Source: Raillietiella orientalis
Taxonomy: Eukaryota
Assembly: GCA_036172245.1 (NCBI GenBank)
Contig: JAYWIR010000012.1
Coordinates: forward strand, 682,001 to 746,000
Direction of reading: 5' to 3'
Length of the DNA: 64,000 nucleotides
This document shows, one piece after another, positions 35,321 through 64,000 of the stretch. Position numbers and translations under genes: made by a program. Position 1 is the stretch's first letter, and each line of letters begins with the position of its first letter. The notes under the pieces were generated by a model. That model worked only from the letters and a program-made list of their open reading frames with translations. It searched no databases and was not told where the DNA came from.

Positions 35321-38246
35321 GAGTCACAAGGATAAGAGTTGCGTGCTTTGTGCCGGTTTGCAAGCAGATGAAGAAAAAAACAAACGGTTTGCTGCTTTTG
35401 CGATTTCGCATCTTCATATGGGTTGCATTTCTAAAATCTTTATCAACCTGTATCCAATGAGAAGTGAAACCTCGTTTGATCATCAAGTGGTCCTTCTGCT
35501 GCTTCATTTGTTCGTACACATTTGTTACTGTGGAATGCTGAGTATCTTGCACTGAACATTGCCTCTGCACTCGCGGGTGCGAAGCTTATGGGAATTCCAA
35601 TTATTGGGAAATTAAAATGTGGACATGCATTTTGAATTGAATTTTTAAGATTCTGTATTAAACACTTGCGACACGATTGGATCACATTATCCTGATTCTG
35701 ATTCTGGTTTATGTCTCTTTTCCAGGTGTTTTTTTTCGCAAGGTAAGTCTTCAGCTAGAAACATCCGGGAAGTAAAGTTGTGATCAAGATGAGGGATCTT
35801 CATTTGTCATAGTAGCTTCTGTGTAGCTTGGTATAATGAAAAGACGCCGTGCTTTTTCTGTCGGAAGTAGTGCAAACTGGTGTCCTAATGAGATTTTTGT
35901 GTCGAAAGTTGCATTACTTGTTCAAGGTTTCCTTAGCATGAATGCATCCTCGATTTGATTCCACGATAAGCGTCGGAGGTGCACGAATCGCATGTAGAAT
36001 CGTCGGACCAATGCAGTGATCAGAGATTTCCTTGGTTTGTTTATTCTTGAATGAACTCGTTTTCCTAGTTATCTCGGAAAGAATCATTTCCGTGATAAAC
36101 CGCTGGCACAAAGCTCGTGAAGAATTCCGCATCTCAGCGAAACTTTAGCAATTACTACTTTTAATGGATCATGCACGCTCAAAACAACGAAAATGGAGAG
36201 CAAACCTTCGGTTAAGTCTTTTCCAGAGCTCAGTATAAAAGTAAAATGTTTCGGGCAAATAATGAGTTAACTGATAGTGTAACTTCGAAAATAAATTTCT
36301 GTAGCGTTTTCGGTCCGTGTACAATTAATTGAATTTCTCCTTTTTAATAAGTATACAATGCAGAAATCAATTGAATTGAATCTGAAAGGATGGTGTAAGA
36401 ATACTCGCAAAGGAACGGTTAGAGGGGTGATTCAAGGTGAAGAAGAAAATGTCGATCAGATGTAAGCACTGCAATAAACTTTATTTAATCACTTTCAGTT
36501 TTCCCATATCCCTAACTGTTTGAAGGTGTCACTGGTTACAGCATACAGGAAGCCCGAAATCGAAAATCACTTCTGTAGCTTTTCAGAATGCAAGAACTCT
36601 GAGCAAACTGGATTTTGACAATTTCCAAATCCGTTATTAGAAACCGATGTCTTAACAAGATGAATAAAGGCCAAGAAATTGCAACCGTGTGTGGTCAGAA
36701 TTTCGTTCTCAGACAAAGCATCCGTTTATTGTGGCGAATGCTTTTCAACTACACCAATCTCCCAGTATAGTAATGTGCCGATAATACTGTAGGATTTTGT
36801 ATCCGTACGTGCACGTGTACGTGCAGAAAAGAATTACCTAGGAATTCTTAGGAACACGCTAATTCCATTTGCAAAACTGAAGACACTGGAGATTGGATTG
36901 CGGTAATTCATCTAACAGAGCAGGCTGGTCATACACTGAACGTACACCGAACCCAACTCTCGTGTTGAATCAATGTGATGTTGAGCAGCAATCCCCCCCT
37001 TCGAGTATTTCTTTCCTTGTTTCTGTCTGTGTATCTCTTTCCCACAAGAAAAATGTTCGTTTATGTCACTAATGGTCATGTCATCTAGTTGAACAACCGC
37101 GGGCAGAACTTCCGAGGTCCGCCGGCTTGTTGGCTTGCTTGCGCAACACGCAAGCTGTGTCTTCGCGCGTCGAGCATGAGGATGCAACGCAGATAGATAC
37201 GAAAGGACGGATTCCTGCGTGCTGCACGGAATCGCAGTGCCGATGCACCCTTCCGCCTTATGATTGACGGTTTGCACGCGACCGCGCAGTCCAATGGTGT
37301 GAAGCCAGTGCAGCTGCAAAATCCTTTCTCGCAAGGGCATTTCAGATACAACGATGTCTAGAGGGTCCATGCCGACTATGACCTCCGCCCATCGGCAAGA
37401 CGGCTTTACGAAACTTTACAAGGGTTCTTTGTTTCCTGTCCTACCGTCGGCAGATAGCCTCAGGATTTTTTCCCTTATTATTTCTCTCAAGGTAGCACAA
37501 GAGAGCTCTCGGGTGAACGGGTTAACAGCTCGGTGCTGCTGACCGTTTCAAATGATGTCGGCGGTTTTTTCCTATTATCATCAGACAGTAGGCGGAAGTT
37601 GCAGGCGGACAATTTCCCCGCCTATTATCTGATGTCCAGATCGAAAGTGTCAACGAGTACATCGCGGAAGGTGTTTATCTGGTGCAGGAACGCTGAGGCC
37701 AGCCTCCACCACAGTTCCTGGAGAGCATCGCAGTCCAAAAACAGATGCGATGGGGTCGCCTTTGCCGACCCACACTTGCAGCAGTTCGGAGACGCTACTG
37801 AACCTGGAGACGAGGGTGTGCAGGCGCTCATTGCTCTGGAATCCCCAGTGCAGAAAGAGCGCTCACTCACAGGAACACGGAAGTGTTCCAACACGAGAGA
37901 GAAAGCACAAGTTCCCCGGAAGCAACACTCCAAAGTCCACTCCATCAAAGGAAGGAGTCCCGTCGCCAGAGTATGCAGCGTGGCAGGATCCACCAGTTCG
38001 CGTGTCTTCCAGCCACCAAGGAGAAAACTCCCTGCGAAGGTGCTGGATGTGAACGCGCACCTATTCGGTCGGCAGCTGTAGTCGGTTGCCCTGCAGGCAA
38101 ACAGCGCCGCGGCAAGGGGTGTTGTGGCCACTTTGCCGTGTCCTGCATCGCCACTTCCAGAGGTCGTGGGGTGCAAAGATCCTCCGGGCGCATTCCGTGG
38201 GATGCAGTCTAGGACTCAACAGTTTCCTGCCGCCTGACATCAAACC

Positions 38247-38435
38247 TGCGGAAGATTCTTCACGCAAGGCGGTCTGTATGTTGGTGGGCGTGATCGCCAA
38301 GCAGATGCTACATCCGCGCCATTGTCGCAGCCCTTTCCGTGATGGGATCTCGTTCGCAGCGAAGGGAGGCCGCCGGAGTGGACGGCTACGAGGAACCTCA
38401 AGGCAAAGTCCCCAGGGTGATCTCCTGCGAGCTTC
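38247..38435 (+). repeat. Left arm of a dispersed inverted repeat (LINE ORF2 C-terminal piece); partner at 40900-41132
   Basis: For example, TTCGCAGCGAAGGGAGGCCGCCGGAGTGGACGGCTACG recurs exactly as a reverse complement near 40988-41025. Confidence 0.85.
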
Positions 38436-40899
38436 AGAGTGCTATGGAACGCATATATGCGTCTGACGAAGACGATCGGCGTATTCTATGGACGTATATA
38501 GTTCGGAGAAATGTATATGCATTTGGCAAATGTATTTACCTTATACAGGCGGCATTGGTTTAGACTATCAACGTTTGATGTGGACACACTTGCGTTCTTA
38601 TAATTCTGTGAGCAACGACAGTAACAACTCCCATCTTGCCGGTTGGCAGCTGTCTTCTCTTGCCTTCAGGGCAGACAGCACTACGGCACACCTGTCGAAG
38701 GTGTCATTCCAAGGGTGAGCGCAACCCTGTGTACCACCTTTCTGCGGACTTTAGAAGGGATTGCAAACAGTTGCTTCCTCTTTTTCATGTTCTCCCACGC
38801 GGGGGCATTCGTCGTAAGATGTGCTTGCATTCAGAAAGTCCCGGACGAATGTAAACGAAGGGTCTCAGTAGGATTATAGATGTGTCCGAGTCGGGAGGCA
38901 AATCACTTCGCAAGCCATGTCGAGCGAAGTCCTCACAGGGAAAACAAGGAAAAACAGGAGGGAAGTAGAAAAGAAAAAGAATCAAAATCGTCATCCTCAG
39001 AAAGGAAAGACACAGTTAGGGTGCTCCCCCTGCTGGCATAACAGCTTTCGGCGCAGCTTCTCTCACTGAGACTTCGCATAGCTACTTTCGAAGATTGCGA
39101 AAGAATAGGCACAAGTCGAACTCCCACGTGCATTTTTTCCAGACATGTCGCGGATCGATCCCTCCGCAAATGCGCCTGTAAACACCGCAACGAGTTCCAG
39201 AGGTGACACTGATTTACTACAACACCTAGGCAACCTTGGAGAAAACAAAACAAGAGAAAAAAAGAAAGGAAGAAAGACAAGCAGAAATTTCGCAAGATGC
39301 TGTCCTTGGAAACCAGGGAATTCCCCTTCCCTTGGCGAAAATTGCTTCCCCAGGATCACAAGAATCCATCCCATTTGCCTGCCCCTGCGTTTCCAAGATC
39401 CCCTCCATACCTACGATGGAAACCTTGGCGGTGTGCGGATTAGGTGCCGCAGAGCTTCCGTGGGTGGCTCCTCAAAGAGGTGAGGTGTGGAAATGCACCT
39501 CCCAGTCTTGCGTTTGTCTCGCGTCTTGAGCTTCATGTAACTGGCCGCCGTTCAGCCGGACAATCGTCGCAGCTTCGTGCCAAGCTGGCTCGAGGCGCGG
39601 TCAAGCAGCGCGCTCGCCGTTCGCTCGCGCCCTCATACAACCTTTCAGCTTACCTTGAGGATCCTGATGGAAACATGAATAAAGGAGGACGTAAGGGAAA
39701 GTTCCGCTCGGGAAGAACACTTGTGGCAATCGTGACCAAAGATTCCCATGAACCGGCAGCATGTAGGGAGTGCCGCGAGCGAGTGTTCTCAGAGAGGGCA
39801 GGAGGCTGCGGTTGCTTGGGTGAGAAGACGCGCCACTCGCTGCACCCCGCATGTGCGCTCTGGGAATGCCTACTAGGTGCTGTGACTCATCGATGCTGTT
39901 CTCCGGAAATTCGGAGTGCGGAGGAAGATCACAGAGGCGAGAGCGGAAACGAGGGATGCTTCCCCAGGAAAGCGTCCGGGTTCCCTTGAGGCAGGTGAAT
40001 CTGTGAAGGGGACCGGTTTGGAAATCGTGCACCCAAGTGCTCATTCTGGGCATACGGGAGATCATGGGGGAGGTGTCCAAGCAGAACCGACAAAGTTGCA
40101 GTGTGCCCGCTTACACTGGGAGCGGGAAGAGGAGCTTGTTCGAAAAGAATAAACCTGCAGCTCCACGCCTCACGTCCCAGTGATTGGAACAGTGTTTGGG
40201 GGTTGACAAGCAGGTTCATGACACAAACGGAGGGTAATTGGAAAAGCAAAAACTAAACTAAAATAAAATAAAATTCAATTGTATCTGGTACTTGACGGTG
40301 TTTGAACTCGTCACACTCAGTACTCGTCGCATTTTGACGAGAAAAAAATGTTTCGACGCTCGGCGCATGCTCGGAACTGGACATCCCACTCTCATGATGA
40401 AGCAAGTGAACGCTTTAGTCTCATGGTAGCTCGCGAACAGTGCCGAACACTTCCATAGAGTGCCTCCCGAATCATTCCTCTTTTTGTGTTTTCCGTGAAT
40501 TCTAAGCATCGTCAATCATGGGTCCTATAATGGTTAAAAATGATACCACGAGGTCTAGAGAGGAACTCGCTCGGTGCTCGTCTCTTTCGGCACTCATCGT
40601 GAGTTCCGGAACGAAGTACCGACAAGTACCGAGGTACTACAGCATATAAAAACCGAATCATTTACATTTTGTACCCAGTCACGCCGGGACGTTTACTTAC
40701 AAATAAATAAATTACAAGTCAAAAAAAAGAAAAAAGAAAAAAAAGCAGCACACTGGAGATGACCACCAGCTCTCAGGCCGGCTTCTGAGGGAGTCAAGAG
40801 TGGAAGCGAAGGGGCAATAAATAAGGTAAAAAAAAAGGGGGGGAGAGAGGACAGGGGACTTTGGTCTCAGCTTCTCCTTTCTTCGTGGAGCTGATGCTA

Positions 40900-41132
40900 A
40901 ATGCTGAAGATCACCCTGGAGACTTTCCCTTGCGGTTCCTCGTAGCCTTCCACTCATCGCTTCTCGGCCTTTTGGCTAAGATCAAAGCGTAGCCGTCCAC
41001 TCCGGCGGCCTCCCTTCGCTGCGAACGAGATCTTATCACGGAAAGGGCTGCGACAATGGCACGGATGTAGCATCTGCTTGGAGATCATGGCCACCGACAT
41101 ACAGCCCGCTTTGCGTGAAGAATCTTCTGCAG
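40900..41132 (-). repeat. Right arm of the dispersed inverted repeat, carrying a roughly 47 nt internal insertion
   Basis: Reverse complement of 38247-38435 at high identity by eye. Confidence 0.85.
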
Positions 41133-42619
41133 CAAATGCAAAGCGGCGTCCCCCGGGTGGGGGAGCGACTGCATCGTCGGTGTGGTGATGTGGCAGCGGA
41201 GGCAGCTAACAGCTGCGCAGTTCTTCGAGTCGCCTCGACGCTACGAAGAGTTCCGACAAGATCCCACAGACGGCTTCCCAGGTAAGACCACGCTGTTGCG
41301 GATCTGTCGGGGCGCAGCGCCTCGGCTTCGTCGTAAGCTGCGAGGACGCCGTGCAAGCAGTCGAGAGCTGCGATCGCGCCGGCGGGCGGAAATTTCACCT
41401 GGTCACGCCCGGGTGTTTGGATAAACCGGTCAAACAGTCTCAACACCGAGTGCTGCCGTGGTGTCTTGTGCTTACTGGCGTGCGGCAGGAGCATACACTA
41501 ATGCTCTGAAGGCTGTGCTTGAAAACGTACTGTGGATTGTCGACGGGGCTGGAAGAGCCACGCAAACAAATCTTCAGGAAGTGGCCGGAAAACAGCACAA
41601 GGCAACTCAGGTGTTGGAATGGTTGGGTTTTCCCCATGGGGCACACTTCAGCGCAACGCTTCTCCTCTTCCCGACGGAATGGAAACGCGTTTTCCGCTCC
41701 TTTCCTTGGCGATCAAATGCTCACACTTGCTCGTTGCTAGAAAAGAGCTACTCCTAAGAGGAAACATGAGGAGAGAACTTGCTCACCTTCAACCCTGAAG
41801 ACGTGGGCAGCAGCCTGAAAAAAGTCCATTCTAGGAGAAGAAAAAGACACGCAGGAAAGTAGAGGCAGCGACAACAGTCGTCGCTCGAACGCAGAACAGA
41901 GGGCAGTTACATGGTCAGGAAACACCTGGAAAAGTTGCAGTACGAGGCGAGACCGACGTGGAATATCGTCAGTAGTGCACTCTCAGGCAGAAGAGCTGCG
42001 TGAAGGGTAAGTTCCTTAGGCAGAGCAGGAGGAACCCTCGGTGCTGTTCATGAGGTGATCCTTACGGATGCAGAGCTTGCCCAGAGACTGCTAAAGCCTT
42101 CTATATGCGTCGAAGGAAGAGAGTCTTTCGGCTCCAAGCGGCACCGTCGGTTGCGATCCGGCTATTGAAGACGCTCAGGACCGAAGAGAAAGAATTCCTT
42201 CTCCAGCACCGGAAGCGGCGACGGTGCACGTGTTCTGCTAAAAGTCGGACCGTTTCCAGAGTTTCCAAAGACAAAAGTCAGCGGTGTGACCGCGGCACAT
42301 GTATCTGTGCACGGAAGAAAACAGCTGATCCATGTTGACGCTGGCGTGGCTGCGGTCTCCGCGGCTGACAACTAGCGCTGCAGTTCGAATGCCTTCGTGG
42401 AGGATATTAGGGTTCGGGCTGAAACTGTGGGGTGCATCGTCGGTTCGAGTCTTCATGGCAGGACGAGGCTGGTTGAACAAGGTGGGCGCGGCACCGGTGG
42501 AAAACGGACGCCCAGTTGACATGCCGAGTTTAGAGGTATACCCTCTCGGATCGTTCCAGGAATCAAGGGAGAGATCCCCTCCGGGGTTTCTCCCTGGTCC
42601 GGAAAAAGGAGCCGTACTC

Positions 42620-43250
42620 CACTTCATTGCGCACCATGCAGCAGGTTGATACCCTCCTCGCAAGGTCGTCTTTCCAGAGTGTAAGAAGCGCGCCGCTCCC
42701 TTTCAGGATCGCCCATGCGAGAAATCTGGAAGCGCCCATTCGGGATTAGGATGATGATAGTTTGGCCGTGAAGGAAATTTCGGCATCTCCATGCGCGTGG
42801 TAGATGTAGGTGGGTGCTGAGCGAGCGTCGGATGCTACGTGGAGCGCACATCTGTTGAAGGATGGGTTCTCCGCAGTAGGCATTGTGTACCCCCCTTGCA
42901 TGCCGATGTCAGCTGCAGCGGCTGTGCGAAGGTGCGATGATCGCTGTGTTGAGTTCTATCTGTTGGAGTGTGACTGCTGCTTCCTGCTAGCTGAAGGAAG
43001 CCAGAAAGAACGTGAATCATGGACATGCGTGATTTGCAACGAATTCAGTTTCATTTCATGGCAGTCGCGAACGACCTTCTGCAATCAATACAGGTTATGA
43101 ATGATTATTTCCTCTTTCGTGGGAATGAAATGCACTAAATACTTCCTTAGAAAGAAGGTACCGAAATACATATCTTCATCTATAATGTGAGGATCAACTT
43201 GGATTAGAACTTGGCATAGACCTCCTCCATGAGTCTGTGATTTCACCTGA
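42620..43250 (+). repeat. Duplicated block A (pepsin-like last exon plus 3' flank); partner at 61370-61990
   Basis: Shared strings such as ATCTGGAAGCGCC, GTGAAGGAAATTTC, TTGAAGGATGGGTTCTCCGCA, GCGAACGACCTTCTG, GATTTCACCTGA. Confidence 0.9.
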
Positions 43251-46123
43251 AATCGTCACACGCTCGTTTCCTTTTTAAGACAACGTGTTTCGTTACCTCC
43301 CTCATGTAATCCTTGCCACTAAAGCTGAAGTGATGTCCCTCTATGTCGAAACTGAATTCTGGAAGACTCGGAGCACTGGAACATGGTATCTAGCAGTTTT
43401 GTGAAAGCAAATCTACTGACGTCCGGTTACCCACCTCCATGAATTGATCACCCTTCTTTGCTATTGTCATCTGTTTAGCAAATTTCTGATAGGAATTTGA
43501 AGAAAGAACAATGCCAATGTGTTTGAAAGAGAAAACGCTAACACATTCGTCTTTGCAGAGCCTCTGTGCTCCCATTTTCACGCTGAAGAAAGATAATGCC
43601 GATCAGCAGCTTCTTAGCAAATTCTCTTGCAATCTCTTACTTGCGCAATGTGAAGAACCAAGATTCCTTGCCATCGGCTTTAAACTGAGCTCCACTGGGT
43701 TCTCCATCAGAAAGCTCTATCGTGAGATTTCCTACTTCCTGGTTATTACTTGGTTCTCTGCAAGAAGGAGGGAATCACTTACAAAGTGGCAAAATCGAGA
43801 GAGATATCATCAGTTTTCTTAATGATAAAGAAATTCACAGATCTGCAACGATTTAGAATCATTCTCATTAAGTCAATTTGCCAATACTAAAACCTGGTTC
43901 TCGAGAGTAGGTTCAAGAACGTACTTTCACCTGATCTAGAGGAGAAGAAGGTGAGTCAAAGAAAGCGCTATTCCTTTCATGCGCCAGCACCCAATTCCGT
44001 CCCTTGATAAAATTTCTCATGTAAGGTTCAAGTTCCTTAATATCTATCGGCAAACATATATCTGGTATGATTAGTCATAAGCACATTATGAATGAAGTAA
44101 AGATAAGCACCAATTACTATACGTTGACATATCTATTCCATATGGGTTTATGTGAAAATCACTATATATTTAAAAAAGGAAGTTTGTTCTACGTTTGTAT
44201 GTGGATTTATGTGGAAATTCATTCTAACATATCGTTAACACCACGTGTGAATATGTACGATTCGAAAACGCAAGCTTGTGTACTTCATACATATTAGCAT
44301 ACATTTCAACACGCAATACGTATTCATGAAATGAATATACGAATACCGAGTAAGAAAGATATCTATTTATGGAATGATAGAAAGGCGGAGAATGGACTTG
44401 GTCATATCGAGCGGGGGTTTCGTTTGTTCAGAGTGGAAACTGACACGGAGATGAAGTACCAAATGGCTTGTTCTTGTTTATTCAAGTCATTTGCTTTCTC
44501 CTATTCTTTCCCCTTATTTTCAGCTGTCTTCACTGTTTCTGATTTTGGTGAATCGATATTTGTGTAAAAAATGAAAAATATCTTTTTAACATATTTTTAT
44601 CGTGCGATATCTTTAGTGTGTGTACCGGAAAGTTATTAATGCATACGACTAATTGTAAAAAGGATATGTAAGCCAGGAAATATTAATAAATATGTGTGTG
44701 TAAATGAATTCGAATACTTATGTACATGCAAATGTAGGTCACGATGCATATACGGTTATTATTTAGTAAATATACGAATCGACGCATTTGTATTGGTATA
44801 TATCTAAAACATGAGCATTCTTTCGTAATTTTGATGTTTTGAAACCGTCCCGTTCCCATGGCATCCTGGGGCCGGCGGAAAAATAGGGGAGTGGAGGTAG
44901 GAATCGCGTGAGGAGAACCGAGGAAAGGAAGAGTGTTTGTGGTGCTCGGTTGAGGGGCCTTGCACACGTGGGGTGTGCCCTTTCCACCGCCAGATTACGG
45001 CGGTGCCTCCCTGTGCACCATGGAGCACCCCCTGCTTGTCGAAAGGGAGCTTCCGTTGTGGCTGCCGCGTGTTGGTGACGATCGGCCTGCGAACTCGCGA
45101 GCGCGTGCTCCTCGGGGAAACGACCGATTTCTCTCAAACGTCTTACCTGTGCCAGCTGAAAGTGTACTTCAAGGATTGCGAGGGAGATAGCAGGCTGTTG
45201 AAGGCATTCAGAAACACTGCTGGTGAAGCGAATTTATCTTCCGGAGGGGGACTCAATCCAAACCATCCATCAAAATTTTGTGGAACAGCATCATAATCTT
45301 TAATGTTTTGTCTTTCCACCACGGAGAAATTGACACCCTTGAGAGAAAGATCTCCAACCTGGAAGCACACAATAGCTGCATTTTGCAGCGAAGCCATCGG
45401 GATTTTTGCTATTCGAATCTCCCGAATGAATCTCCAGGAAAGGACCGCAAGTACGAAGAGATTGCTTAGAACGCGATTCAGCCATTGGTTTCTTGCATGT
45501 AAATGCTTCCTTATGTTTAACTCGAGACCACAAATAATGCAGGATTTTTCTGTTTGCAAGTTTGGATCTTTCGTCCGCTTTAGATATCGAAACTCCCGGA
45601 GATGCGGTGAAATCCTAAATTTCAGTAGGGAGTTCTCAAAATTCGAGAGGCATCAAAGTAACCAAAAATCTCGTCGTAAAACAGGCGGAAAACTCTAAAT
45701 GAGCACTAGAATATCCCCAAGAGAACGCACTTGAATATCTTCCGTTCCCACATGGTCCACTCTTAGAAAACTGGCGAGTTCCTTGTCGTCTATCTCATGA
45801 AACGTTTGTGAATTTTCAATTGTATATAAATCACCTCCATCTGAAAACGAAACTCTGTTATATTCATCAGAAAACGTGAATGTGAATATTACCTTCATCG
45901 TAATATGATACGCCCTCTTCCACGACAACCAGTAATTCATACAAGCTTGCATGTGGCAGAAGATTCACTGTTTTCTGGGGCTTTCCTATTTGTACCTTCA
46001 CGTAGTTGTACTGCAAGAGAGAAAAGGATGCTCAGCGTTGAATACTGTCGAATCCCACACGCAAATTAAGTCATCTGGAACGCTCGCTTTTGCTCCCATT
46101 GAACGCACGCAAATAAGAGACAT
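43085..46123 (-). CDS. Pepsin-family (peptidase A1) aspartic protease homolog, predicted catalytically inactive, about 340 aa, 8 exons (N-terminus uncertain)
   Basis: Exons 46061-46123(?), 45893-46010, 45731-45840, 45147-45358, 43641-43757, 43435-43582, 43297-43389, 43085-43246; all GT-AG, phase-consistent and stop-free. Pepsin landmarks in order: YNYVKVQIGKPQKTV, TEDIQ-VGDLSLKGVNF, NFDGWFGLS, YTFSWHR, VGNLTI, ESWFFTLRNVKMG, IPCSSAPSLPEFSFDIEGHHFSFSGKDY, MYFGTFFLRKYLVHF. Confidence 0.88.
44850..45125 (-). mobile_element. GC-rich LINE-like fragment in the long intron of the pepsin-like gene
   Basis: Abrupt GC-rich segment with weak resemblance to the ORF1-type pieces elsewhere in the window. 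Confidence 0.3.
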
Positions 46124-47269: not shown

Positions 47270-48160
47270 ATGAGAAAGTTATAGTCGGAAAGTTGCGTGA
47301 TAGAAAAGGCAGAGAGGGCAGAGATCTTCCTCCGAAGCATCTCTTGAAGAGTTGAAACAAAAATGCGAGATGCAGAGCTGTACCTGGCGGCTTCTCCGAT
47401 GAAATAGCCAACGTGGAGCAAGAGGAATCCCAGGAAATACTTCATTGCAACTCTGCTGTTGGTGGCTGAGCCCTTCCTGAAAGGAAAAAGGGCTGAGAGC
47501 GCTGGTCAAGAGCATTCGAGTTGTCCGCTCCAGCGGAAGCGTTTTGTCTGGAACAATGGGCAGTGATCGAACAATCTTCGCAGAGATGCTATTTGGACCT
47601 GCAATGGTTCGCAGGAGGAAGGACTTTGGCTCCCAGGTAGAGTCAGAACACTGTCACGTGAACTTGGCGTTGAACTTGCTTGCTAATCCTTAAGACTCTT
47701 CGCAGATGCTGGAGCGCGTGTTGAGGAATCGCACCGCCAGGAAGATTATCCAGGAGATTGTTCCGCTGGCACGCAAGTAAGAGGAAATCGTGTTGCTCAG
47801 CTGTCGTACCAAGGCCGGCAACCGGCAACACAGGAGTCACAGGATGTGCAGTATGGGATGGCATTTTGCATCTCGTTCCCTGAAGCGGCGTCTTGATTGT
47901 CCCAGTATCACGAGAAACGGTTTGTCAAGCCAGGTCCTTCAGAATCAGAATTTTTTATTGACAGTGGAAAATTTTGCCTGCTGTTTCTACGCAGAACAAT
48001 GAAGAGGGACTGCGATTGGTGAGGTGATTTTCTTACTACATGATGCTTCCATATCGTTTCGATGAAAGAGGCTGGCATTTGCTCAGCACTTTCTGGCGTT
48101 CCAGCTGTGCACAAAAGGTACAAGCTGCCGGAACCCCAGAGGTGCGTTCTTGAAACGATG
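47270..48160 (+). repeat. Duplicated block B (upstream flank of the pepsin-like gene); partner at 63145-64000
   Basis: Collinear shared strings GCTCCAGCGG, AATGGTTCGCAGGA, CGCGTGTTGAGGAAT, TCAGCTGTCG, CGATGAA. Confidence 0.8.
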
Positions 48161-49649: not shown

Positions 49650-52420
49650 CAGCCTTAGACCGCACTTGGTCCAGAGCCTGAGACGTGCAGTGCTTAGAAT
49701 GGTCCCTGGGTGCTGCAGAGGTGCCACATGGTGCCTCAAGGCGGTGCTCGAATTCAATCCGTGGGTTATCACCACGGTTCGAATGACCGTGAACAAACCT
49801 TTCCGCAACGATCTGAGGGCAACAGAACGCATCAGCAGGTGCTGGAATGGTTCAGCTTGCCGTCACCAGACACACTTCGGCGCCATATTTCCCCTCGTTT
49901 AGCAATACGAGAAGAGCGCGTCTTTTGTTCTTTTGCTTGGCGTTCTACTAGTCAGGCTACTCGTTACTGTCTTTTGCGACTCTCCTAGAGGCTGGTATCA
50001 GTGAGGCTCGGAAAATCGAATAAATGCCAGAAAAGTAGCACTCTCAAGAGGAAATGTGAGGGAAGAGTTCTTTACCTTGGCCATCTTCACACGTGGAGAC
50101 GTGAGCAGGAGCCGGAGAAATATCGACTCACCAAAGAGCGAATGATACGCAGGAAGGTGGAGGCAGCATGAGCACCCGCTGCCCAGGTGCACGCCGGATC
50201 CCGGGCCATGTAGGTGCCACTTAGATGGCCCAGGGACTCCGGGAGATGCTACAGCACAATGTTTGGCCGACATGGACTTTTGCCAGTGGTGCGTTTTACA
50301 GCAGGAGAGCCGCGCGAAGGGAACGTTCGTAAGGGTGAGCATGAGGAACTTTTGGTGTTCTTCGTGAGATGAGCCCTGGAGAACTCGGGACGTTTCCGGA
50401 GGCTGCCCAAACCATCCATATGCTTCGAGGGAAGACGGTCTTTTTGCTCTAAGAGGGACATCGAGTTGCAAAGTTCAGCGTATTTCATAGTTGCACTATG
50501 AAATACGCTGAAAAGCCGCATTCGCTCTGGAGATTCGAGAGACGATACTGCAAGATACCGGACGTTTTCTTAGAGTATCAGGGATAGGAAGTCGATCTTC
50601 CGGGATCTATCCAAGAATCAAAGAGGCGGTTCCTTTTTGGTTTCGTTTCAGGTTATGAGAAACCAAAATGGGGGGAGCCGTTCGCTTACGGAGTGTTTGT
50701 GGGCACACGGTGCGACGATGTCTCGTTTGCTGAAAAGTCCAAGGTTTGAGATCATCCGCGGGACGTTGGAAACGAAATTCCAGGATGGTGACGTTCAGTG
50801 CGTGTTCCCGAAATGGATGAGCCCAGTTCTTTTCCCGCTCGGGGAATGCAAGTGACACGCATGCGAAAGCCGTCTCGAGTCGACCACCTGGAGAATGAAG
50901 GCCATGAGCGTGAGGATGCGAAAGTGGCCTGTTTAGCCACCGGAACGGCCGTTCAGGAGGGGGAGGCAGGCATTGGAGACGCGATGCGACAGCAGGTGCT
51001 CAGCAGGGAAACAGTTTGAAGAGAGGGAAGTCCGGCGCACTGGTGGGTGACGAAGGGGCGCGGATGCGTGGGATGAGGATGGAGGGATGAGATGCGAGCC
51101 GTGCCGTGTAGCTCTCGATCGCGCTCACGTGCTGGAAGGGCGCCTTCTGGTGATGCGGTGCGCGAGGATCCAATCAGCGTTGCACGGAGCAACTGATGTC
51201 ACGAGACGCGGGGACAGTCGTGCATCATCGAAGGTTAGCCACCTGTCGACAACAGCAGAAAAGTCTTCCTTTAAAGGAAGGAAGGTGGGGAGTGGGGAGA
51301 AAAGAGGAACTTTTGGTCTGCCTCCCGAAGAACCTGTAGCCTTTTCACCCTACGTGGAAACCTCCGTGTTCCCGCTTCGTGGTAACAGGATGTTCTGCTG
51401 TTTCTGCACTGGGGACTCCAGTGCAATTAGTTCAGACACCTGGTTTCTGGGGGGTTGCGTCCTTAATTTGTCTTAGGTGCAGAGCGATAGAATCGCTTCC
51501 GCACTCAGTTTTGGACTGCAGTGACTTGCAAGAGCTGTGGCGGAGACTCACCACGGGTCTCCATCAACTCCAAGACACTGCCATCCACCTGCTTCTTTAG
51601 CAAAGACGGACTGGAAAAGGGCGTTGTGATTTCACACCCAGGTGCGCCGGGGCGTTTATTGCTCTTAGACAGATCGATGGAGCCAAAAGCTTCACCGATT
51701 CCAATTATTACACTAAAACTAGGGGGAAGCCGGCGAGGTCCATCACGTCCACGAAGAAGAAGGGGGTAAAACAAAACTAGAGAAAAGAGAAACAGACTAT
51801 AACAAACAATAAAAACTAACCCAAAAAAATTAGTTGGGGGAAGGGATGGGATCACATTTCGAGGTGGGTGAGGCCTCTGCATCCGTTGAAGGATGCCGGC
51901 GAGCTCCTCCTTCTCTCTTTCCAGGTGGGGCCACCTCAAAGCTATCCGCATGAAGCGAATGGCGTGCAGGGCAGCCCCCTCGTCTCTCCGACCTCTCTCG
52001 GCGTGGCACTTCGCCGCGACGACACTGCGCACGCAGCACAGAGCTGCGATTGCGGCTGCGGGCGTCATGGCGTCCCACACGAAGAGGGACCTCAAAGAGT
52101 CTATGGAATCGTCCACGGGGTGTGTAGGGACGCAGAGAAACTTTCCCATAATTCCCGGAGAGCGACACACTGCACTATGAGGTGGGGGAAAGTCTCCTTC
52201 TCTCCACACCTGGCACAATTGGGCGATGCGCTTCCCCTCGTCCAGTGGTGCCGGAGCGCATTGCACAGAAGACCTCAGTGCAGTATCATCAGCGCCGACT
52301 GCTGCCACTTGAGGGAAAGCAGCTTACTGTCCCTGAGCACAGGGGGCACTTCCAACTCTTCGGGCTGAATGGAGAAGAGTTAGCCTCAATGTTCCAGTCC
52401 TTTGGAGACGGTTCTTGGTG
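49650..52420. mobile_element. L1/Tx1-clade LINE ORF2 fragments
   Basis: 49670-50430 is homologous to 41440-42100. A plus-strand thumb AKVACLATGTAVQEGEAGIGD leads to zf-RVT CRAIESLPHSVLDCSDLQELW (50500-51620). A minus-strand zf-RVT SPNCARCGEKETFPHLIVQCVALRELW has a T-rich 3' tail (51760-52370). Confidence 0.8.
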
Positions 52421-52699
52421 TTACTGCTTCAGCCAGCTGACGCGTAGTCCAGCCACCCATAGCCTTCCTCCAAAGTGCTTCTTTTTTTTACTTTTTCTTT
52501 TACTTTTCTTTTTCTTTTTTCCCCATCTCCCTCCGCTGCCGAAGAGAGTCGAGTCAGTCTGCGTACGGAGACCCGGCAGGTCCCATGGTGTGCTGGGCGT
52601 AGTGGAACCTTGTACCACAAACGTAAAGAAGGGTTTTAATAAACGCTTCGGCGTGACCGGATGGCAACACCCAAGCCGGCGAGTAGACGGTCTACCGGG

Positions 52700-53535
52700 A
52701 ATCCTCCGCAGAACACTCGGACTGAGCGCTTGAGAGCGTTCCAGTCTTCGAGTCGCTGCACTGTTGCTTTTCGCAGGAAGGCGCGGAGGTGCTCCACTGG
52801 CCCGAGGAGACGCATCCAGTCTCCCGGTATATGCCACACGGAGGGCGGGGGCCTTTCTGCGTGGCAGCATTTCGAACTCAATTCGGGAATGGTCCGACAG
52901 CTCCGACGGCATCCTGTTCCGGCAACTCACTCGCGCGTTCAGGTGCTCGTCGAGGAAGACGTGGTCGATGCTGTTTTCCACCCCCGGTCGCCGTCAAGCA
53001 AGTTGCGCGCGCGTACGGACGCGCACAGTTCGTTGACGTGGTGGAGTTCGGCGATGTTCCCACCTGAAAAGCCGTCGCATGTTGAAGTCGCCTGCAATCA
53101 GATGGGCCTTGCACACGCCTGTCATCCAGCCATCCGCGCTGTAGGGAGTCGAAAAAGTTTTTCCGTTCCCTGTGCAGGTGGGAGCCAGTCGGCGCATAGA
53201 CATTGGTAAGCACGAGGTCGATCGAGTTGGACCATTTGAGCACAAGATGGCCGACGCGACCTTCAGCGTCGAACCGTACGCTATGTACCGTACGCATAAT
53301 GGCTGATGCAGTCAGGAATGCCTCCCCTCTCGATTTACGCGTGCCAAACCGCCAATGCAGCTTTCCGACCGCGGTCCTTTCGAAGTCGGCGACATCCTCG
53401 TAGGAGATAACGTGGATCTCTTGGAGTAGAGCCAAGTCGAAGTTTCGTAGAGTGGGCTTTGCCGCGTCTTTTTCTGACGTCGCACAGGCCGTTCACGTTC
53501 CAAATGGCCACACGCAAGCGACGGGAGGACACGAA
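52700..53535 (-). pseudogene. LINE ORF2 apurinic-like endonuclease (APE) domain, frameshifted
   Basis: WNVNGL, ALLQEIH, SRGEAFL, DAEGRV, NVYAP, IAGDFN, SIDHVF and SDH motifs spread over three frames. Confidence 0.9.
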
Positions 53536-53539
53536 TCCG

Positions 53540-54738
53540 CGTATTACTGCCGGGAATCTGGCAGTGCGGCCCCCTTCTGGCTTGCAGGTGGCGCGTTCTC
53601 GTTGGGGGAAGGCATTTCACGGACTTCCGTGGCACCCCCTATGCCCTCTTCACCTTGCGGCGGGAAGGGCGGGGCTGTCTCCAAGGAGGAGTCCTGTGAG
53701 CCTTCCTCCATCTTTGGGTCAGAACCAGCGTCGTTCCCCCCTTGCAGGGACACTTCCCTGTGGACCGCTTCTACATGGAGCGCGGTCTTGTGGAGTAGTC
53801 CCTGCACGGGAGGCGACGGTTCTGCGTTCGCCTCTACCTCAGAGGTCGGGCAGAGCGATTCTTTCGCGGTAGGCCCGCGTATATCGTCCCGAGCGACTCT
53901 CGCGGCCGCGCGCGTCATCACGCTCGGGCGCTTTCCAGAGGCTGGCGAGAGGTTTGCAGGGCTGCTGCCAGGAGCCGCTGGTGATACGCCGTCGAGGTCA
54001 ACAACCTTGACGACCCGCATGTTGCAGGTCCCGTCTACCGTGCTCTCGGTCGCGGATGGTGTGATCTTTCTCCGCAGGAGAGACGGTGCGCTGAACCGCA
54101 GCTACCGCGTTTTTTATTTTCGCGAGTCGCGGAATGACATTGCGCGCGGCCTTTCTTTTTCCCATTTCTGTTTTTTCGGGCAGATGACCTGCACCCAGCC
54201 TGTTTCCTTCTCCCCCTCCTTGACTCCCACATGGTTGCCTGCCTCAAGTGCAGGCGTGGTGGATGCCGCTGGTTGCGGGTAACCTTCCGGAACCGCCTCC
54301 GATGCAAAATCGGCCGCGAGCGCTCGGTTTTTCCCATTTTTTGTATTCTTTTTATTTTTTTTGTTTCTGTTTTCTTTTTTCTTCATCTTTGTGGCTGACG
54401 CATGTTTAACCAGGTAGAGGGCACACGAACTGGATGTGTCCCTTCGCGCCACAACGGTAGCATTCGATGTCGGGACACCCCCTCTTCCGTTTCCGAGACT
54501 TGCCACAGTGGGCGCACACAAGGGGCCTCCTCGAGCACCAGACGCCGACGGGTTCCCTGCCGACGTCCAATCTGCGGGGTAGGACGCTACCCCTTCCACG
54601 GACGGTAATGAGGGCCGCTGACCAGACCTGCTGATACCTGGTGTGCAGGGAAGACGCAGGGCTTCGCCCACAGTGCGTGCACCGCCGCGAACTCTTCCAA
54701 TTTCCGATGGACCGCCTCCTAGGTCGTCCTCACCGTCA
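53540..54738 (-). mobile_element. LINE ORF1 fragments, including a degenerate zinc knuckle
   Basis: VCAHCGKSRKRKRGC near 54475-54520; low-complexity ORF1 tail abuts the APE start. Confidence 0.6.
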
Positions 54739-54956
54739 AAAGAAGACGGGCAGCTTGGGATAGAAAAATTCTGGGCTGGAGCTTTAAGGAGAGAGGTGCT
54801 TGAAGGAGATGTTGAAACGGGATCTTTAATGGCTGGTCAAAGTGTTGGCATGGTTGATAAAGAAAAGCCCGTAAAAGAAGTGATAGATGTGTTAGTTCAA
54901 CAGGCAAACAATTATATCTAAAAAAACGAATAAAAGTTCTACGTGCGAAGAATAGT
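54736..54956 (+). pseudogene. C-terminal fragment of a bacterial nitronate monooxygenase / FabK-like flavin oxidoreductase
   Basis: IEKFWAGALRREVLEGDVETGSLMAGQSVGMVDKEKPVKEVID; the TAA at 54919-54921 looks premature because the frame continues KTNKSSTCEE*. Confidence 0.8.
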
Positions 54957-54957
54957 A

Positions 54958-55125
54958 AGGAATGTGATTTGTCGAAATTTGTTCACGATAACTCTCGGCA
55001 TAATTTAAAGCAAAAGCGTACTGATTGTACGAACAATCTAGAAAAACTTGAAGAGCTGAGAAAAGTTTTCTCGCTGCCAAATGTTCCGAAGCGCATCGAG
55101 GTTTATGATAATATCTGGAAATCAG
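54958..55125 (+). pseudogene. uvrC: Internal fragment of excinuclease ABC subunit C
   Basis: NLEKLEELRKVFSLPNVPKRIEVYDN, then after a small deletion ISGNQ (UvrC RIExxDNSHIxG motif). Confidence 0.85.
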
Positions 55126-55287
55126 AGAGAGTGTTGGACTCACGGTCAAGTGTAAGGTAGTTTAGCCCTGCATTTTTCAAAAATTCAATTCCTCTTGATT
55201 ATTTCACTTAATATTTTACTTGAGATTTGCTTCTGTTGTTCTACAAGCTTGCCTGGCGAATTTTCAAACCATTTAAGGGATTTATCG
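55123..55287 (-). pseudogene. uvrA: Internal fragment of excinuclease ABC subunit A
   Basis: DKSLKWFENSPGKLVEQQKQISSKILSEIIKR / frameshift / IEFLKNAGLNYLTLDRESNTLS, the segment preceding the UvrA LSGGE signature. Confidence 0.85.
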
Positions 55288-55387
55288 TTGCGGAAACTTT
55301 TCTCCTTCCAACTCTTTTATTTCCTTATATTTCATCCTTTCAAATATTTGATCTTACTCACCTTCTCACAATTTTGAAAGAGGTCTA
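55286..55387 (-). mobile_element. Left end of an IS5-family insertion sequence (terminal repeat plus transposase start)
   Basis: TAGACCTCTTTCAAAATT end, then ATG at 55335 giving MKYKEIKELEGEKF, which resembles Wolbachia IS5-family transposase N-termini as I recall them. Confidence 0.6.
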
Positions 55388-55532
55388 TTCACAATTCACA
55401 CATACGTTCGGGAATGTGGGATTTGTGCAAATGCTATCCTTCAGTTGATTTTTACATTGAAAAAAATTCCTGACCGAGGTGATTTTTTGCATATAATTCT
55501 AAGTATATTAATAATTGATTAAAGAGGTAGTT

Positions 55533-55896
55533 ATGCCAATTTTTAAAAGTCATCGTGGTCAATTCCACAAAATGAACACTGCACTTCTCCGTACGTCGCA
55601 ACGGTGTTACTGCTACTACTTTTCAGCGAGGTGTGGAAATGCATGATGAAGAGATTACTGCTATAAAAAACACTTCCTGCTCTAAAACAGGGGTTCTACC
55701 TAATCTCATGAATAAAATTATTCTGAGTACTGAATCTAGGTTGTCGCCACTTCAATTAGCGATAATGTGTGGTTGGAAAGAAGTCATCATCGAATTAATT
55801 AAAAAAGGAGCGAACCCTAACAAAACACTTGGTGTACAAGGCATTACTATTCTTCAACTTATGTGTACCGCTGCTGTTTTTAAAGATAAGCAATAG
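55533..55896 (+). pseudogene. 5' fragment of a bacterial ankyrin-repeat gene
   Basis: Shine-Dalgarno-like AAAGAGGT before the ATG at 55533; frameshifted; LSPLQLAIMCGWKEVIIELIKKGANPN ankyrin repeat. Confidence 0.65.
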
Positions 55897-56049
55897 GACA
55901 AATCAAAAAGAACGTTTTTCGCCTATAATTGGGGATTTAGGCGAATTTATAATATGCCCTATTTGTCTTCCCCATAGCGAAGGTTGGTATTAGATTCAAT
56001 TTTCATAATTTTCCCGTCGACTGACAAGACGGTATCTTTTTTCTCTTCC

Positions 56050-56335
56050 TTACATCAACTTTTCCTCTATCAGATATTTAATTGGATAGAAGTTACCATT
56101 TTTAGCAGCATAGTGCAAAGGTGCTTTATTATACTTATCTCGAGCATGAACGTTGGCTCCTTTCTTCTCTATCAGATATTTAACTAAATCTAAATTACCG
56201 CTTTTAGCTGCACGGTGCAAAGGTGTTTGATTATCCTTATCTTTAGCATTAACATCAGCTCCTTTCTCTTCTATCAAGTATTTGACTAAATATAAATTAC
56301 CAGCTCCAGCAGCAGAGCATGTAGGCGTTTGACTA
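56050..56335 (-). pseudogene. Fragment of a bacterial ankyrin-repeat gene (about three 102-nt repeats)
   Basis: AAGAGNLYLVKYLIEEKGADVNAKDKDNQTPLHRAAKSGNLDLVKYLIEKKGANVHARDKYNKAPLHYAAKNGN. Confidence 0.85.
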
Positions 56336-56683
56336 TACCTACCCCAAACTTGACAAACTTTGGAGCAATAGCATCAGATTGACAATTCATCGAGCACTTA
56401 AAAACAAAGGATTCACAAGAAAAAAAAGACCTACGGACATAAAGAAAGAAGTGAGGAAAAGCGAGCTCAGTTTGCAAAGATTATAGCAACAAAAAATCCT
56501 GATGATCTCATGTACATAGATGAATCAGGAATAGACGACACTGAAGATAACGCTTATGGATATTGTAGAAAAGGAGAGAGGTTTCATGCGCTAAAATCTG
56601 GAGTGAATAGTCAGCGTATTAGCATGATTGCAGCGTTAAATAAAAAGAAAATAATTGCCCCGTTGACCTTTGAAGGATAATGT
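56335..56683 (+). mobile_element. IS630-family transposase fragment
   Basis: IHRALKNKGFTRKK / -1 shift at A8G 56420-56428 / KTYGHKERSEEKR...LMYIDESGIDD..YGYCRKGERF...RISMIAALNKKKIIAPLTFEG. Confidence 0.88.
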
Positions 56684-57140
56684 CAGTGAGGTGCACGATC
56701 AGGGAGAGGTCCTCTGTTATGGGGAAGAGCTGGCGCCTTCCGATCATGGTCGAAGTTCGCAGTAATCACTGGGTTAGGGTCGCGTCCTTGAAAGCCTGAC
56801 CTCGACGGCCCTTCCCCCGGCCAGAACGGAGAGCGCGCAAAGCTCTTCCGGTTTAATTTGCAGTCACTGAAGCTCCCTCGAGAAGGAGAGCGCGACAGCA
56901 AGGTCATACAAAGGGCCTACCTTATATCTCAGGCATGGATTATAGGCCTGCGCGTTGATAGCAGCCGCAGGCAAGGGTGCCGCAGCCACCATGCTCCAAG
57001 TCTTCCTGCTGGGGGAAGACGATCCTTCTTTGGAGAGGACAGCGTTCACCTCGTTCTCCTCGTTCTCCCCGGGTGGTGAGGCTTCTGCCCCTCTTCCCAA
57101 GGGCGCTGATAGGCTTTGAGGACATCGGGTTGCCGCCAAA
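56682..57140 (-). mobile_element. LINE ORF1 N-terminal fragment, collinear with the piece left of the endosymbiont insert
   Basis: KTWSMVAAA, LQIKPEELCALSVLAGGRAVEVR, LSLIVHL. Confidence 0.55.
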
Positions 57141-57299
57141 CACTATTCCACACTTCACGGGTTGGTGACCTCGCGGAGAGCTCAGAGGCACGTTCGACCG
57201 GCAGAGAGCAGTGATCGCAAACATCGGTTGCATCGGTGCCATAGCCACAGCCAGCCATGTGTTGGAGTCAGATTTGTAGTGAAGAGAGGCCACCAGCAT

Positions 57300-60200: not shown

Positions 60201-61200
60201 TCGTCGTGCAGCCCGTCGACATTCCGTCGGGAAACTGAGACGACCCTGAGGACGGGATTGCCTACATCCGTGGCTGAGGAGATTGTGGCGTATTTCCCGC
60301 ACCGTGGTGCAAGTGACCTTCCTGCAGCACGGATGACGTTGAAGCGCCTTCTCTGCTTTTTGTCTCCGTACTGCACATTGCCCATTTCTCGGGGGCGAGG
60401 ATCACCTCCGGATTTGTTGTAATGAGAGGCTTGAGAACCCGCACCTTTGAGAGCGGCGCACCCTTTTTAGTTCTTTGCTGACTGAGACCCCAGACCGGGC
60501 AACAGCGGTGGGACGCAAGAAAGACTTTTCACCTGCCGGCGGATACGCCAAGGACCCGCCCAACTGGACGGCGCATGCAAAACAGACAGAACAGCCTTCT
60601 GCCTCATGCATGAAAACGGCTAAGCCCTGCCTGGAAGTGAGCGGAACTCACGTATCAGGTAAGTCCAAGAGAACACAATTTCCAAAGACATGCACAAGAG
60701 ACGGTGCGCTAAATGACGCGATTTTGTGACCCAACCACCTTGTTTAAAGATGGACGTCTATTCGTGAAATATCTCGAGCGTTTGTAGGACCTCACCCCAG
60801 GGTCGCCTTGAAAGTCCGGGGGCACAGGGCACAGCGCCCAAAAAGTAGCTTTGAATTCCGAATAAACGACAGCTGGATGAGAGGAGACAGGAGGCAGCCG
60901 TAAAAACCTTTCCACGAGGTTTCCATCTCAGGCCGAATTCGGGGGAAAAGACTTTTCGTGCGAATCTTCGTTCGAGTTCGCTGTTGGCTTCTGCAAAGCC
61001 ACGGAGAGCAGAAATGCCTCTGACTGCTGGGAATCAGTTCGAAGAAGAGTTTCTGGCTTGCGCTGGCGGCCTTAAGACTGCGACCTCTGCATGTGGAACC
61101 AAAAGATCAGGGTTGACATCCCGCTCTGGAAAAAATGGAAGCAGAGAATGGGGATGCGTCGTGAGTTTCAAGTTCCTCACGCTGGATAATTCTGGTTGGC
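57300..61200. mobile_element. Further scrambled L1/Tx1-clade fragments
   Basis: Minus GIR*GCP (about 57700); minus decayed RT core CLDSPRSF...CVRGVPCTFLLF...FA(D)D-like (58500-59100); plus zf-RVT HRCWEREALSQMIVDCAALRPPW with T-rich tail (59200-59700); minus ORF1-like piece (60200-60450). Confidence 0.7.
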
Positions 61201-61821
61201 CTCGTTTGACATAGGGTGAGGCAATGGCGGAAGTTGGAAACCGTATGCTCCCGCTAACTGGTCGGAATTGGAACTAGACCATCTATGGTTCTTCAAGATA
61301 TCAAGTAGCTCTGAAGTTTTCCCCTTTGTTCCTATGAAAATAAAAAAAATTCTCTTTCTCAGAAAAGACTGCATTGGTGCCATGGATCTGGTACATATCC
61401 CGCTTGGAGATGGTAGCCTCTCCTTGGTGTAAAAAGCGTGCTGCTTCTTTCCAAGATCGCCAATCCGAGAGATCTGGAAGCGCCAATTGGTGTTTCGTAT
61501 GATGATAGGTTGGCTGTGAAGGAAATTTCCACGTCTTTGCGTGCGTGTAGGTGGTTGCGGAAAGAGCGTCGCATGCCACGTGAAGAGCGCATCTCTTGAA
61601 GGATGGGTTCTCCGCATCAGGCCTTCTGTGCACCTTTTGCATGACGATGTCAACTGCAGTGGCGCTGTGAAAATGTCATCATCGCTGTGGTGGACTCCAT
61701 CCGCTAGCGTGTAACTGTTGGTCTGAACTGAAGGAATCCAGATTGAATCAGCATCACGAGCATACATGATTTACGACGAATTCACTTTCATTCCATGGCA
61801 ACTGCGAACGACCTTCTGTTA

Positions 61822-61984
61822 TCAATTCAGGTTATAAACGATCATTTTTTGCTGCGCTAGAAAGAAGCGCACTGCATACTTCTGTACAGAGAACGTACCT
61901 AGATACACAGCCTCATCAGGAAATTTTTGAAAGATGCTGGACCGCAATTCCGCATAGACCCTCTGCATCACAGTTTGATTTCAC
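61822..61984 (-). pseudogene. Paralogous last exon of the pepsin-like gene, +1 frameshift, upstream exons missing
   Basis: cag acceptor then VKSNCDAEGLCGIAVQHLSKI / PDEAVYLGTFSVQKYAVRFFLAQQKMIVYNLN*; 163 nt versus 162 nt in the intact copy. Confidence 0.85.
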
Positions 61985-62269
61985 CTGAGATCGCCGAAAA
62001 AGCCAAGCGCAATTTTGTACAACCAGAGTCGTACACATTACCAGCAGGAACGATGGATGAGTGGAACAAGAGAGATGTTGCATTAGAGCGAAGGCAAGAA
62101 GTTGAGCTGACAGTGAGGGATTGAGCTCTTCAGGCGCAGCATCCAGGCGGAAGCGACAAGCACTCGTACAACATGTGAATACACTCGCTTTACCAAAATT
62201 TACAACTCGCTTCGTATCGAAAGATACACGAACCGGTTCGTGTTCAGTGTAATTCTTCAGGATAGGGGG

Positions 62270-63145: not shown

Positions 63146-64000
63146 GAGGAGCCGACTATAAGCGGAGATGGGTGATAAAAGGAGCACACGCCACAAACTT
63201 TCCACGAAAACATCCCTTGAACGATGCGCAACTAAAAATGGAATTCAATGCTGTGTCTTGCGGCTTCTTCAAAGAAAAAGTCAGTGTGGATCACGAAGAT
63301 TTCCCCTTAAAAACTTAATCTCGACTCTGCCGCTGCTCCTTGAGCTCTTTCTGGAAAGAGAACCGGATGAGTACTTTGGACATGAACATTCGAATTGTAG
63401 GCTCCAGCGGCAGCTCTTTCCAGACTGAATGGGCTACGAACGGAAAGTCTTCCCACAGATTCAACTTCGACTTGGAATGGTTCGCAGGACAATGGACTTC
63501 GGTTACAAGGAAGGGTCGAATTTCTTGCGCTTGAACTCGGTCCTCAAATTGTTCGTGGATGCTCGAGGAAACGCGTGTTGAGGAATGAAATCGTTAGAAC
63601 GGCTACCCAGCAAAGTGCACTGTTCAGACGCGCTAAGGAGGAGATCATGCTGATCAGCTGTCGCAGGGAGGGGGAGAAGGGGAACACGACATTTAGGTAT
63701 GGCGTTTCCCATCTCATTCCCTGTGGGGATGTCATGACTTCACCAGCAACAAGAAAAGCTCTTCATGAACGGCAGTCGAGCTCATCAGCAATAGAATGAC
63801 GATGAAAAGTATTCCTGCTCTATCTGCGGAAAAGAATCAAGAGGGAGCTGCAACCAACATGAAGATTTTCTAATGATGAGATGGTGTTTCGAGATCGTAT
63901 CGATGAATGCAGCTAGCGGTTGCCCAGCATCTCACTGGTATCCCAGCACCGCACAGAAGGTATCAGCTTTCTCAACACTAGAGATCCGTTCATGGAGCAA

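Follow-up and report, generated by a model that had tools for sequence, protein, structure and literature searches.

An eight-exon gene of the pepsin family

The window analyzed here is a stretch of 64,000 nucleotides (nt) from Raillietiella orientalis (contig JAYWIR010000012.1, positions 682,001 to 746,000), and our subject is a gene on its minus strand, between window positions 46123 and 43085, whose predicted product belongs to the pepsin family (A1) and carries neither of the family's catalytic aspartates. Eight exons join at this locus into a spliced frame of 1023 nt, in which 340 codons are followed by TGA and no internal stop occurs. The original prediction for this DNA had described such an uninterrupted eight-exon frame, and splicing by coordinates confirms it. 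Introns 1 to 7 are all of the GT-AG type, with lengths of 50, 52, 372, 1389, 58, 45, and 50 nt and consistent phases; all 14 splice dinucleotides are intact, and disabling stops and frameshifts are absent from the 340 codons.

The exons are described here in order along the minus strand. Exon 1 (46061..46123) opens with an ATG at 46123-46121 and ends at the donor TGC/GTGTGG (the slash marks the exon border); it lies outside the profile alignment described below, which begins at residue 26, and both the exon and its ATG were placed by the open frame and the GT donor alone. Exon 2 (45893..46010) encodes the motif I-G-K-P-Q and the first "active-site" loop, L-L-P-H-A-S, with its His codon at 45953-45951. 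Exon 3 (45731..45840) holds the flap region, with Phe85 at the Tyr column and a flap shortened by three residues, and exon 4 (45147..45358) ends the N-terminal lobe with the conserved motif F-D-G-x-x-G-L. Exon 5 (43641..43757) covers the inter-lobe region and includes an N-L-T sequon, and exon 6 (43435..43582) encodes a C-x3-C loop and, after it, the second "active-site" loop, V-F-S-F-K-H, with its Ser codon at 43530-43528. Exon 7 (43297..43389), preceded by the 45-nt intron 6, is the best-conserved piece of the gene (I-P-C-S-S-A-P-S-L-P-E-F...), and exon 8 (43085..43246) supplies the C-terminal strands, F-G-T-F-F-L-R-K-Y, and the TGA at 43087-43085.

Family membership was assessed against A1 references collected from metagenome and metatranscriptome contigs with a degenerate DNA pattern for the A1 active-site motif. 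This yielded 119 loci, 116 of them with an open reading frame (ORF) holding the motif; 44 of the 116 ORFs were kept, being stop-terminated, 285-335 residues long from motif to end, and equipped with a second D-T/S-G, and the 72 that were partial, intron-split, or devoid of the second motif were excluded. All references carry the exact search motif, so the bias of the resulting profile is confined to the first site, and Pfam calls all 44 reference ORFs Asp (PF00026), with a best E of 6e-126. The spliced protein scores 52.4 bits against the 44-ORF profile (E 2.9e-18, a single test), in an alignment that takes in profile positions 17-318 (of 328) and protein residues 26-332 (of 340); against the same profile, none of 1000 composition-preserving shuffles exceeds 5.6 bits. 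An hhalign comparison of the spliced protein with the reference alignment gives 97.1% (E 5.5e-11, 217 columns). Membership in the pepsin family, as first proposed from the sequence, is thus borne out by a match across both lobes.

It might be objected that such a gene is no more than open frames joined by chance, or an over-fitted model: the exon borders were chosen with the pepsin family in mind, and most single exons are not significant alone. We consider this barely credible. The distance between the spliced score and the best shuffle, together with the hhalign result, stands against it, and even a million alternative splicings would be insufficient to produce such a score. The halves of the protein are also significant separately (12.2 bits for exons 1-4 and 34.8 bits for exons 5-8, with none of 1000 shuffles reaching either), and the single exons that align fall on the profile in collinear order: exon 2 at positions 15-29, exon 3 at 57-67, exon 4 at 91-124, exon 7 at 246-274, and exon 8 at 295-319. 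When the profile was used to score 2677 ORFs of the window, those holding exons 7, 4, and 8 ranked first, second, and sixth; no second A1 gene was found among these ORFs.

Contiguous, unspliced pieces of the locus, moreover, match the family in Pfam, in the PDB, and in an Atlas language-model search, which again argues against a chance assembly. Among nine stop-to-stop pieces submitted to Pfam, only the piece with exon 7 touches Asp (E 0.021, 14.7 bits), and a read-through of exon 6, its following intron, and exon 7, with X at one stop, reaches E 0.0017 and 18.3 bits, where the gathering score is 19.9. Searched against the PDB, the exon 6-7 piece returns 29 matches at E <= 10, of which A1 chains make up the top 19 and 23 overall, with Bla g 2 in the lead and renins and cathepsins D after it. 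The leading matches to Bla g 2 chains (E 0.002-0.003 over 34 residues) fall in exon 7, to which hhalign gives 86%. The language-model search with exon 4 alone finds PF00026 in 22 of the 30 nearest clusters, with a top score of 0.94, and TAXi_N in three of the 30. We conclude that A1 homology across both lobes of the predicted protein is established. Two further signals were set aside: exon 2 alone against the reference alignment gave 0.3% in hhalign, and a sub-threshold Pfam match to Mhr1, inside intron 3 in the frame-1 read-through, was taken as chance.

Catalytic positions and conserved columns

In the HMMER alignment, His41 (CAT, 45953-45951) occupies the first catalytic Asp column and Ser225 (TCT, 43530-43528) the second, and the motif columns read H-A-S and S-F-K instead of D-T-G, with a posterior support of about 0.6 for His41 and of 0.8-0.9 for Ser225. 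From the Gly of I-G-x-P (G30) to His41 there are 11 residues, the canonical spacing as found in the references; the assignment of His41 to Asp32 rests on collinearity and on this spacing, exons 1-3 being marginal when taken alone. Five residues separate the end of the C-x3-C loop (C220) from Ser225, the canonical spacing of pepsin's Cys206-Cys210 loop before Asp215. The hhalign alignment, which is gapped and of low confidence at the second site, puts Leu232 rather than Ser225 under the second Asp. Neither alignment gives an Asp at that position, and the proposal that both catalytic aspartates have been replaced holds under either, with the identity of the second residue depending on the method.

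A displaced or hidden aspartate is not apparent in the surrounding sequence. Residues 26-58 include no Asp, and between Cys216 and Asp252 the only acidic residues, Asp218 and Glu219, lie inside the C-x3-C loop. Neither D-T-G nor D-S-G occurs in the three minus-strand frames between 42900 and 47600; therefore, no hidden alternative exon restores a site. The codon positions and the lack of both motifs are as originally described.

The pattern of conservation elsewhere separates the fold from the active site. Of the 57 reference columns that are at least 90% conserved, 19 are kept, including G30, P32, D127-G128, G131, F164, W201, C259, P266, C298, G316, and F319. Every active-site column, by comparison, is changed: both D-T-G-S/T stretches, with the T-G-S-S and T-G-T-S that flank the aspartates, and the Y-G of the flap. 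The column of flap Tyr75 (pepsin numbering) holds Phe85, the Gly that follows it is replaced by Leu (F-L), and three residues are deleted. Among the disulfide positions, the columns of Cys259 and Cys298 and the Cys216/Cys220 loop are kept and the pair after the first site is absent; by the usual naming of the Cys pairs, this leaves two of the three.

A conventional aspartic-protease mechanism is excluded for the predicted protein, which lacks both the Asp of the C-terminal lobe and the flap Tyr. According to PMC11313796, the C-terminal-lobe Asp is required for activity, and the Plasmodium protein HAP, which has His32, is active only through its retained Asp215. The flap Tyr, according to PMC3116508, is conserved in every known active A1 member, and Phe at this position permits only reduced activity.

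An atypical enzyme could nevertheless be imagined, in which the scaffold was re-tooled so that the His and the Ser, or other residues, run a different hydrolytic chemistry. The two columns in question hold side chains that oppose one another in A1 structures, and HAP illustrates that catalysis can go along with a His at position 32 (PMC11313796). We regard this as improbable, at roughly one chance in a score. HAP keeps its Asp215, and the same paper argues that the C-terminal-lobe Asp is indispensable. The T-G-S/T neighbors, the flap Tyr, and the length of the flap are also lost here, which points to decay of the site and not to redesign; the second-site alignment is ambiguous between Ser225 and Leu232, and no relatives show conservation of the His and the Ser. 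The most specific form of this idea, that His41 and Ser225 face one another across the cleft as a new catalytic pair, and that a re-invented hydrolase has been kept by selection in an unsampled lineage, is slightly more doubtful still.

The decayed duplicate and the surroundings of the gene

Evidence on the history of the gene comes from a second, decayed copy 18 kb away. One block of it (61427..61993, minus strand) comprises exon 8 and the 3' flank and is 73% identical to 42679-43255, with a 1-nt insertion that shifts the frame inside the exon; the other (63200..63994, minus strand) is 64% identical to the upstream block 47327-48152 and ends a few bases short of the end of the window. Exons 1-7 are missing from this copy, in which 1207 nt lie between the blocks, versus 4072 nt in the intact one. 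The duplicate as a whole (61427-63994) nearly reaches the window end, and further copies may lie beyond it.

The flanks of the two copies provide a measure of drift. Between the duplicate flanks, K ranges from 0.28 to 0.45, and 13 indel events are counted per 1179 aligned nt, 11 of which are not multiples of three. Since the possible point changes in the coding sequence would create a stop in 4.6% of cases, half of the flank drift, assigned to the intact lineage, predicts approximately 7-10 stops and 5 frameshifts in the 1023 nt, and none is observed. This argument assumes that the duplication spanned the whole gene, which is supported by homology on both sides. Neutral drift over this period would almost certainly have broken the frame; the absence of the predicted lesions and the intact state of the 14 splice dinucleotides therefore suggest that the frame stayed under protection through most of the interval that followed the duplication, and the gene has probably been kept by selection while its other copy decayed.

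The principal alternative is that the locus is a non-functional relic, that is, a locally duplicated A1 gene that is unexpressed or splice-defective and whose frame is open by chance. We consider this possible, although less probable than a gene maintained by selection. The neighboring copy is plainly dead, with exons 1-7 gone and exon 8 frameshifted, and an A1 gene of Phytophthora sojae in which both motifs are replaced, and which has no orthologue, is treated as a pseudogene in PMC3116508. Set against a relic are the stops and frameshifts that drift at the level of the flanks would have left in the coding sequence, the intact splice dinucleotides, and the non-random nature of the losses, in which active-site columns are gone and fold-marking Gly, Phe, Trp, and Cys columns remain. 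Given an intact frame and losses of this kind, any loss of function would have to be recent.

A number of observations weigh against an intact gene kept by selection, and several of them are equally what a relic would lead one to expect. Conservation in exon 8 does not exceed that of neutral DNA: 108 of its 162 positions are identical to the dead copy (K 0.45), compared with 303 of 395 in the 3' flank (K 0.28) and K 0.45 in the upstream block. Its differences fall 25/14/15 on codon positions 1/2/3, a neutral-like distribution with no sign of purifying selection on residues, in the only stretch where constraint at that level is measurable. The acceptor of the 45-nt intron 6, cacaaaactgctag, ending in ctag, is purine-rich and weak, where the other six acceptors have a pyrimidine tract, and retention of this intron would terminate the frame at a TAG. 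No poly(A) signal (AATAAA or ATTAAA) occurs in the 1084 nt past the stop. The 340-residue model starts with a 21-residue exon 1 and has no signal peptide; one would come from the candidate leader exon discussed below. On the side of homology, exons 1-3 alone (the N-terminal 97 residues) score 0.4 bits, which 44 of 1000 shuffles equal (p ~0.04, marginal), and the contiguous pieces all fall below the Pfam cut-off for Asp (at best 18.3 versus 19.9 bits). A frame-1 read-through with exons 1, 3, 4, 5, and 8 gives no Asp match in Pfam, and a PDB search with exons 2, 4, and 8 singly finds no A1 chain, exons 4 and 2 each returning one unrelated match and exon 8 none. Identity to the 44 references is 14-21%, whereas the references share 30-88% among themselves; a word-index search with exon 4 recovers no close relative, and an exhaustive phmmer run with the exon 6-7 read-through against 1.84 billion representatives gives three matches at E <= 0.001, all to long, repetitive, unrelated proteins. 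The missing relatives are a weak counterpoint, because the source lineage seems unsampled, as judged from an exon of a neighboring gene that has at most 71% identity to anything in the database.

The suggestion that the gene is kept by selection accordingly has indirect support: the frame and splice sites have stayed intact despite drift in the flanks. Against it, exon 8 gives no indication of constraint on amino acids. No case for positive selection on exon 8 is made, the exon being more diverged than the 3' flank (Fisher p 0.02) but equal in divergence to the upstream block. Separately, the 400 nt past the stop (42679-43084, minus strand) are 77% identical between copies (K 0.28) and thus better kept than exon 8 or the upstream block; they could be a 3' untranslated region, a regulatory element, or the product of mere rate variation.

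The 5' end of the gene may extend beyond the eight-exon model. A candidate exon 0 (47384..47445, minus strand) begins with an ATG at 47445 and comprises 20 codons with a hydrophobic, signal-peptide-like N-terminus, ending at a good phase 2 donor, CAG/GTACAG. In the 4.4 kb upstream, just one other ATG-led ORF has a hydrophobic N-terminal window. The phase of its donor matches the acceptor ttcatcttgag before exon 1 (first base 46139), the one pyrimidine-rich acceptor there, and with this junction exon 1 would begin at 46139 rather than 46123. In the decayed duplicate the ATG, the frame, and the GT of exon 0 are all destroyed. The resulting nine-exon model would encode about 366 residues, consisting of the leader, roughly 25 residues, and then the mature domain; those 25 residues leave no space for a full propeptide of about 40. 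It is conceivable that exon 0 is the true first exon and supplies a signal peptide.

The original prediction also placed the gene amid decayed transposons, a claim that gains no support here, though it is not refuted either. In the 36.9-64 kb part of the window, 52 long ORFs yield no Pfam match at E <= 0.001; these ORFs span at least 330 nt and were picked by hand, so that a few of this size may have been missed. The introns and flanks of the pepsin-like gene do not appear as repeats elsewhere in the window. The segments 36000-42000 and 50000-64000 are GC-rich (up to 59%), with long open frames on both strands and no Pfam domains, and a diverged repeat pair (41735-42144 and 50025-50459) is 65% identical. 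An ORF at 52424-53492 on the minus strand resembles a retrotransposon endonuclease by eye, and Pfam gave no confirmation.

Farther away, the window holds a mind-bomb (MIB1) gene on the minus strand (6503-27295), recognized through the Pfam domains ZZ (27005-27295), MIB_HERC2 (26706-27092), SH3_15 (23262-23867), and Ank (22594-23332 and 6503-6880), all on that strand. A mir-1 hairpin (11659-11730, plus strand; Rfam 54.2 bits) lies antisense in a 16-kb intron of this gene, and its mature arm ends as in arthropods; no mir-133 reaches the gathering score in the window. Vertebrate mir-1-2 also lies antisense in a MIB1 intron, and the arrangement may be an old linkage. The SH3-repeat exon of MIB1 (23523-23867, minus strand) has no more than 71% identity among 544 database relatives, with 68% to Blattella, and insects, crustaceans, molluscs, and fish all stand at much the same distance from it. 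Public protein sets therefore seem to cover the source lineage poorly, and the lineage does not appear to be a cockroach.

Place among known A1 proteins and biological meaning

Inactive and atypical members of the family offer several points of comparison. Inactive A1 proteins, among them pregnancy-associated glycoproteins (PAGs) and Bla g 2, and A1 proteins without a propart are both on record, according to PMC3116508. PMC9541408 describes three insect proteins, Bla g 2, Per a 2, and Lma-p54, as inactive and secreted, and gives their function as unknown and binding as the role proposed. The product of the locus resembles this group (MEROPS A01.950, as cited in PMC3116508) in being an invertebrate pepsin-family protein that is predicted to be non-proteolytic and is a candidate for secretion. 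A predicted length of about 340-366 residues, which would leave no space for a full propeptide, may be a further likeness to the Bla g 2 group. It differs from Bla g 2, however, in the loss of both aspartates and in a similarity confined to one exon, exon 7; Bla g 2 itself retains the two Asp and owes its inactivity to changes in their vicinity.

Other known cases share single features with the predicted protein. Ungulate PAGs (MEROPS A01.971, again as cited in PMC3116508) are likewise lineage-specific, locally duplicated, and fast-evolving. Many of them carry substitutions in the active site, and their supposed role is the binding of peptides, not cleavage. Unlike the protein described here, they are placental proteins of vertebrates that retain the propeptide together with most of the surroundings of the active site, and no specific sequence relationship was seen. 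In plants, TAXI-I, EDGP, and basic 7S globulin have the pepsin fold but no longer the Asp of the C-terminal lobe, and they serve, or once served, as binders or inhibitors (PMC11313796); these inhibitor-like proteins have Pfam models of their own (TAXi_N and TAXi_C), neither of which matched the pieces from the window. Plasmodium HAP shares with the locus a His in the first catalytic Asp column (PMC11313796), but keeps Asp215 and is active; the predicted protein has Ser (or Leu) at the second position and nothing else of the site survives in it. An A1 homologue with the His/Ser pair did not surface in the literature searched, which is not proof of its absence from print. Two tick proteome papers (PMC10665701 and PMC12466206) were set aside because the pseudoproteases they deal with are of the serine type. 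The predicted protein belongs to A1 by homology and, by every test for an active member, comes out as inactive, and the kind, that of inactive A1 homologues, is already known.

Taken together, we favor, by a modest measure of confidence, an intact and extremely divergent A1 pseudoprotease that selection has kept as a two-lobed scaffold for binding and not for cutting. Under such an interpretation, the protein would keep the pepsin scaffold and the residues that mark the fold, with the catalytic apparatus lost. Selection would have maintained the frame after the local duplication while the protein evolved fast. If the weakly inferred leader is real, the product would be secreted and folded without zymogen activation, with little or no propeptide. 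Its dead cleft, or a surface close by, would then serve to bind a ligand such as a peptide, a mode of action proposed for Bla g 2, Per a 2, Lma-p54, the PAGs, and the plant inhibitor-like proteins.

Inactive relatives of proteases are common and often have binding, inhibitory, allergenic, or reproductive roles. The existence of such a protein would be unsurprising to specialists, and no long-standing question is opened by it. The locus does represent an extreme case: identity to ordinary A1 members is at most 21%, and both aspartates, their neighbors, and the flap Tyr have been lost in a frame that is open. If expressed, it would give an invertebrate lineage scarcely covered by public protein sets one more family of secreted proteins, and it would illustrate the extent of divergence that the pepsin scaffold can undergo without being lost.

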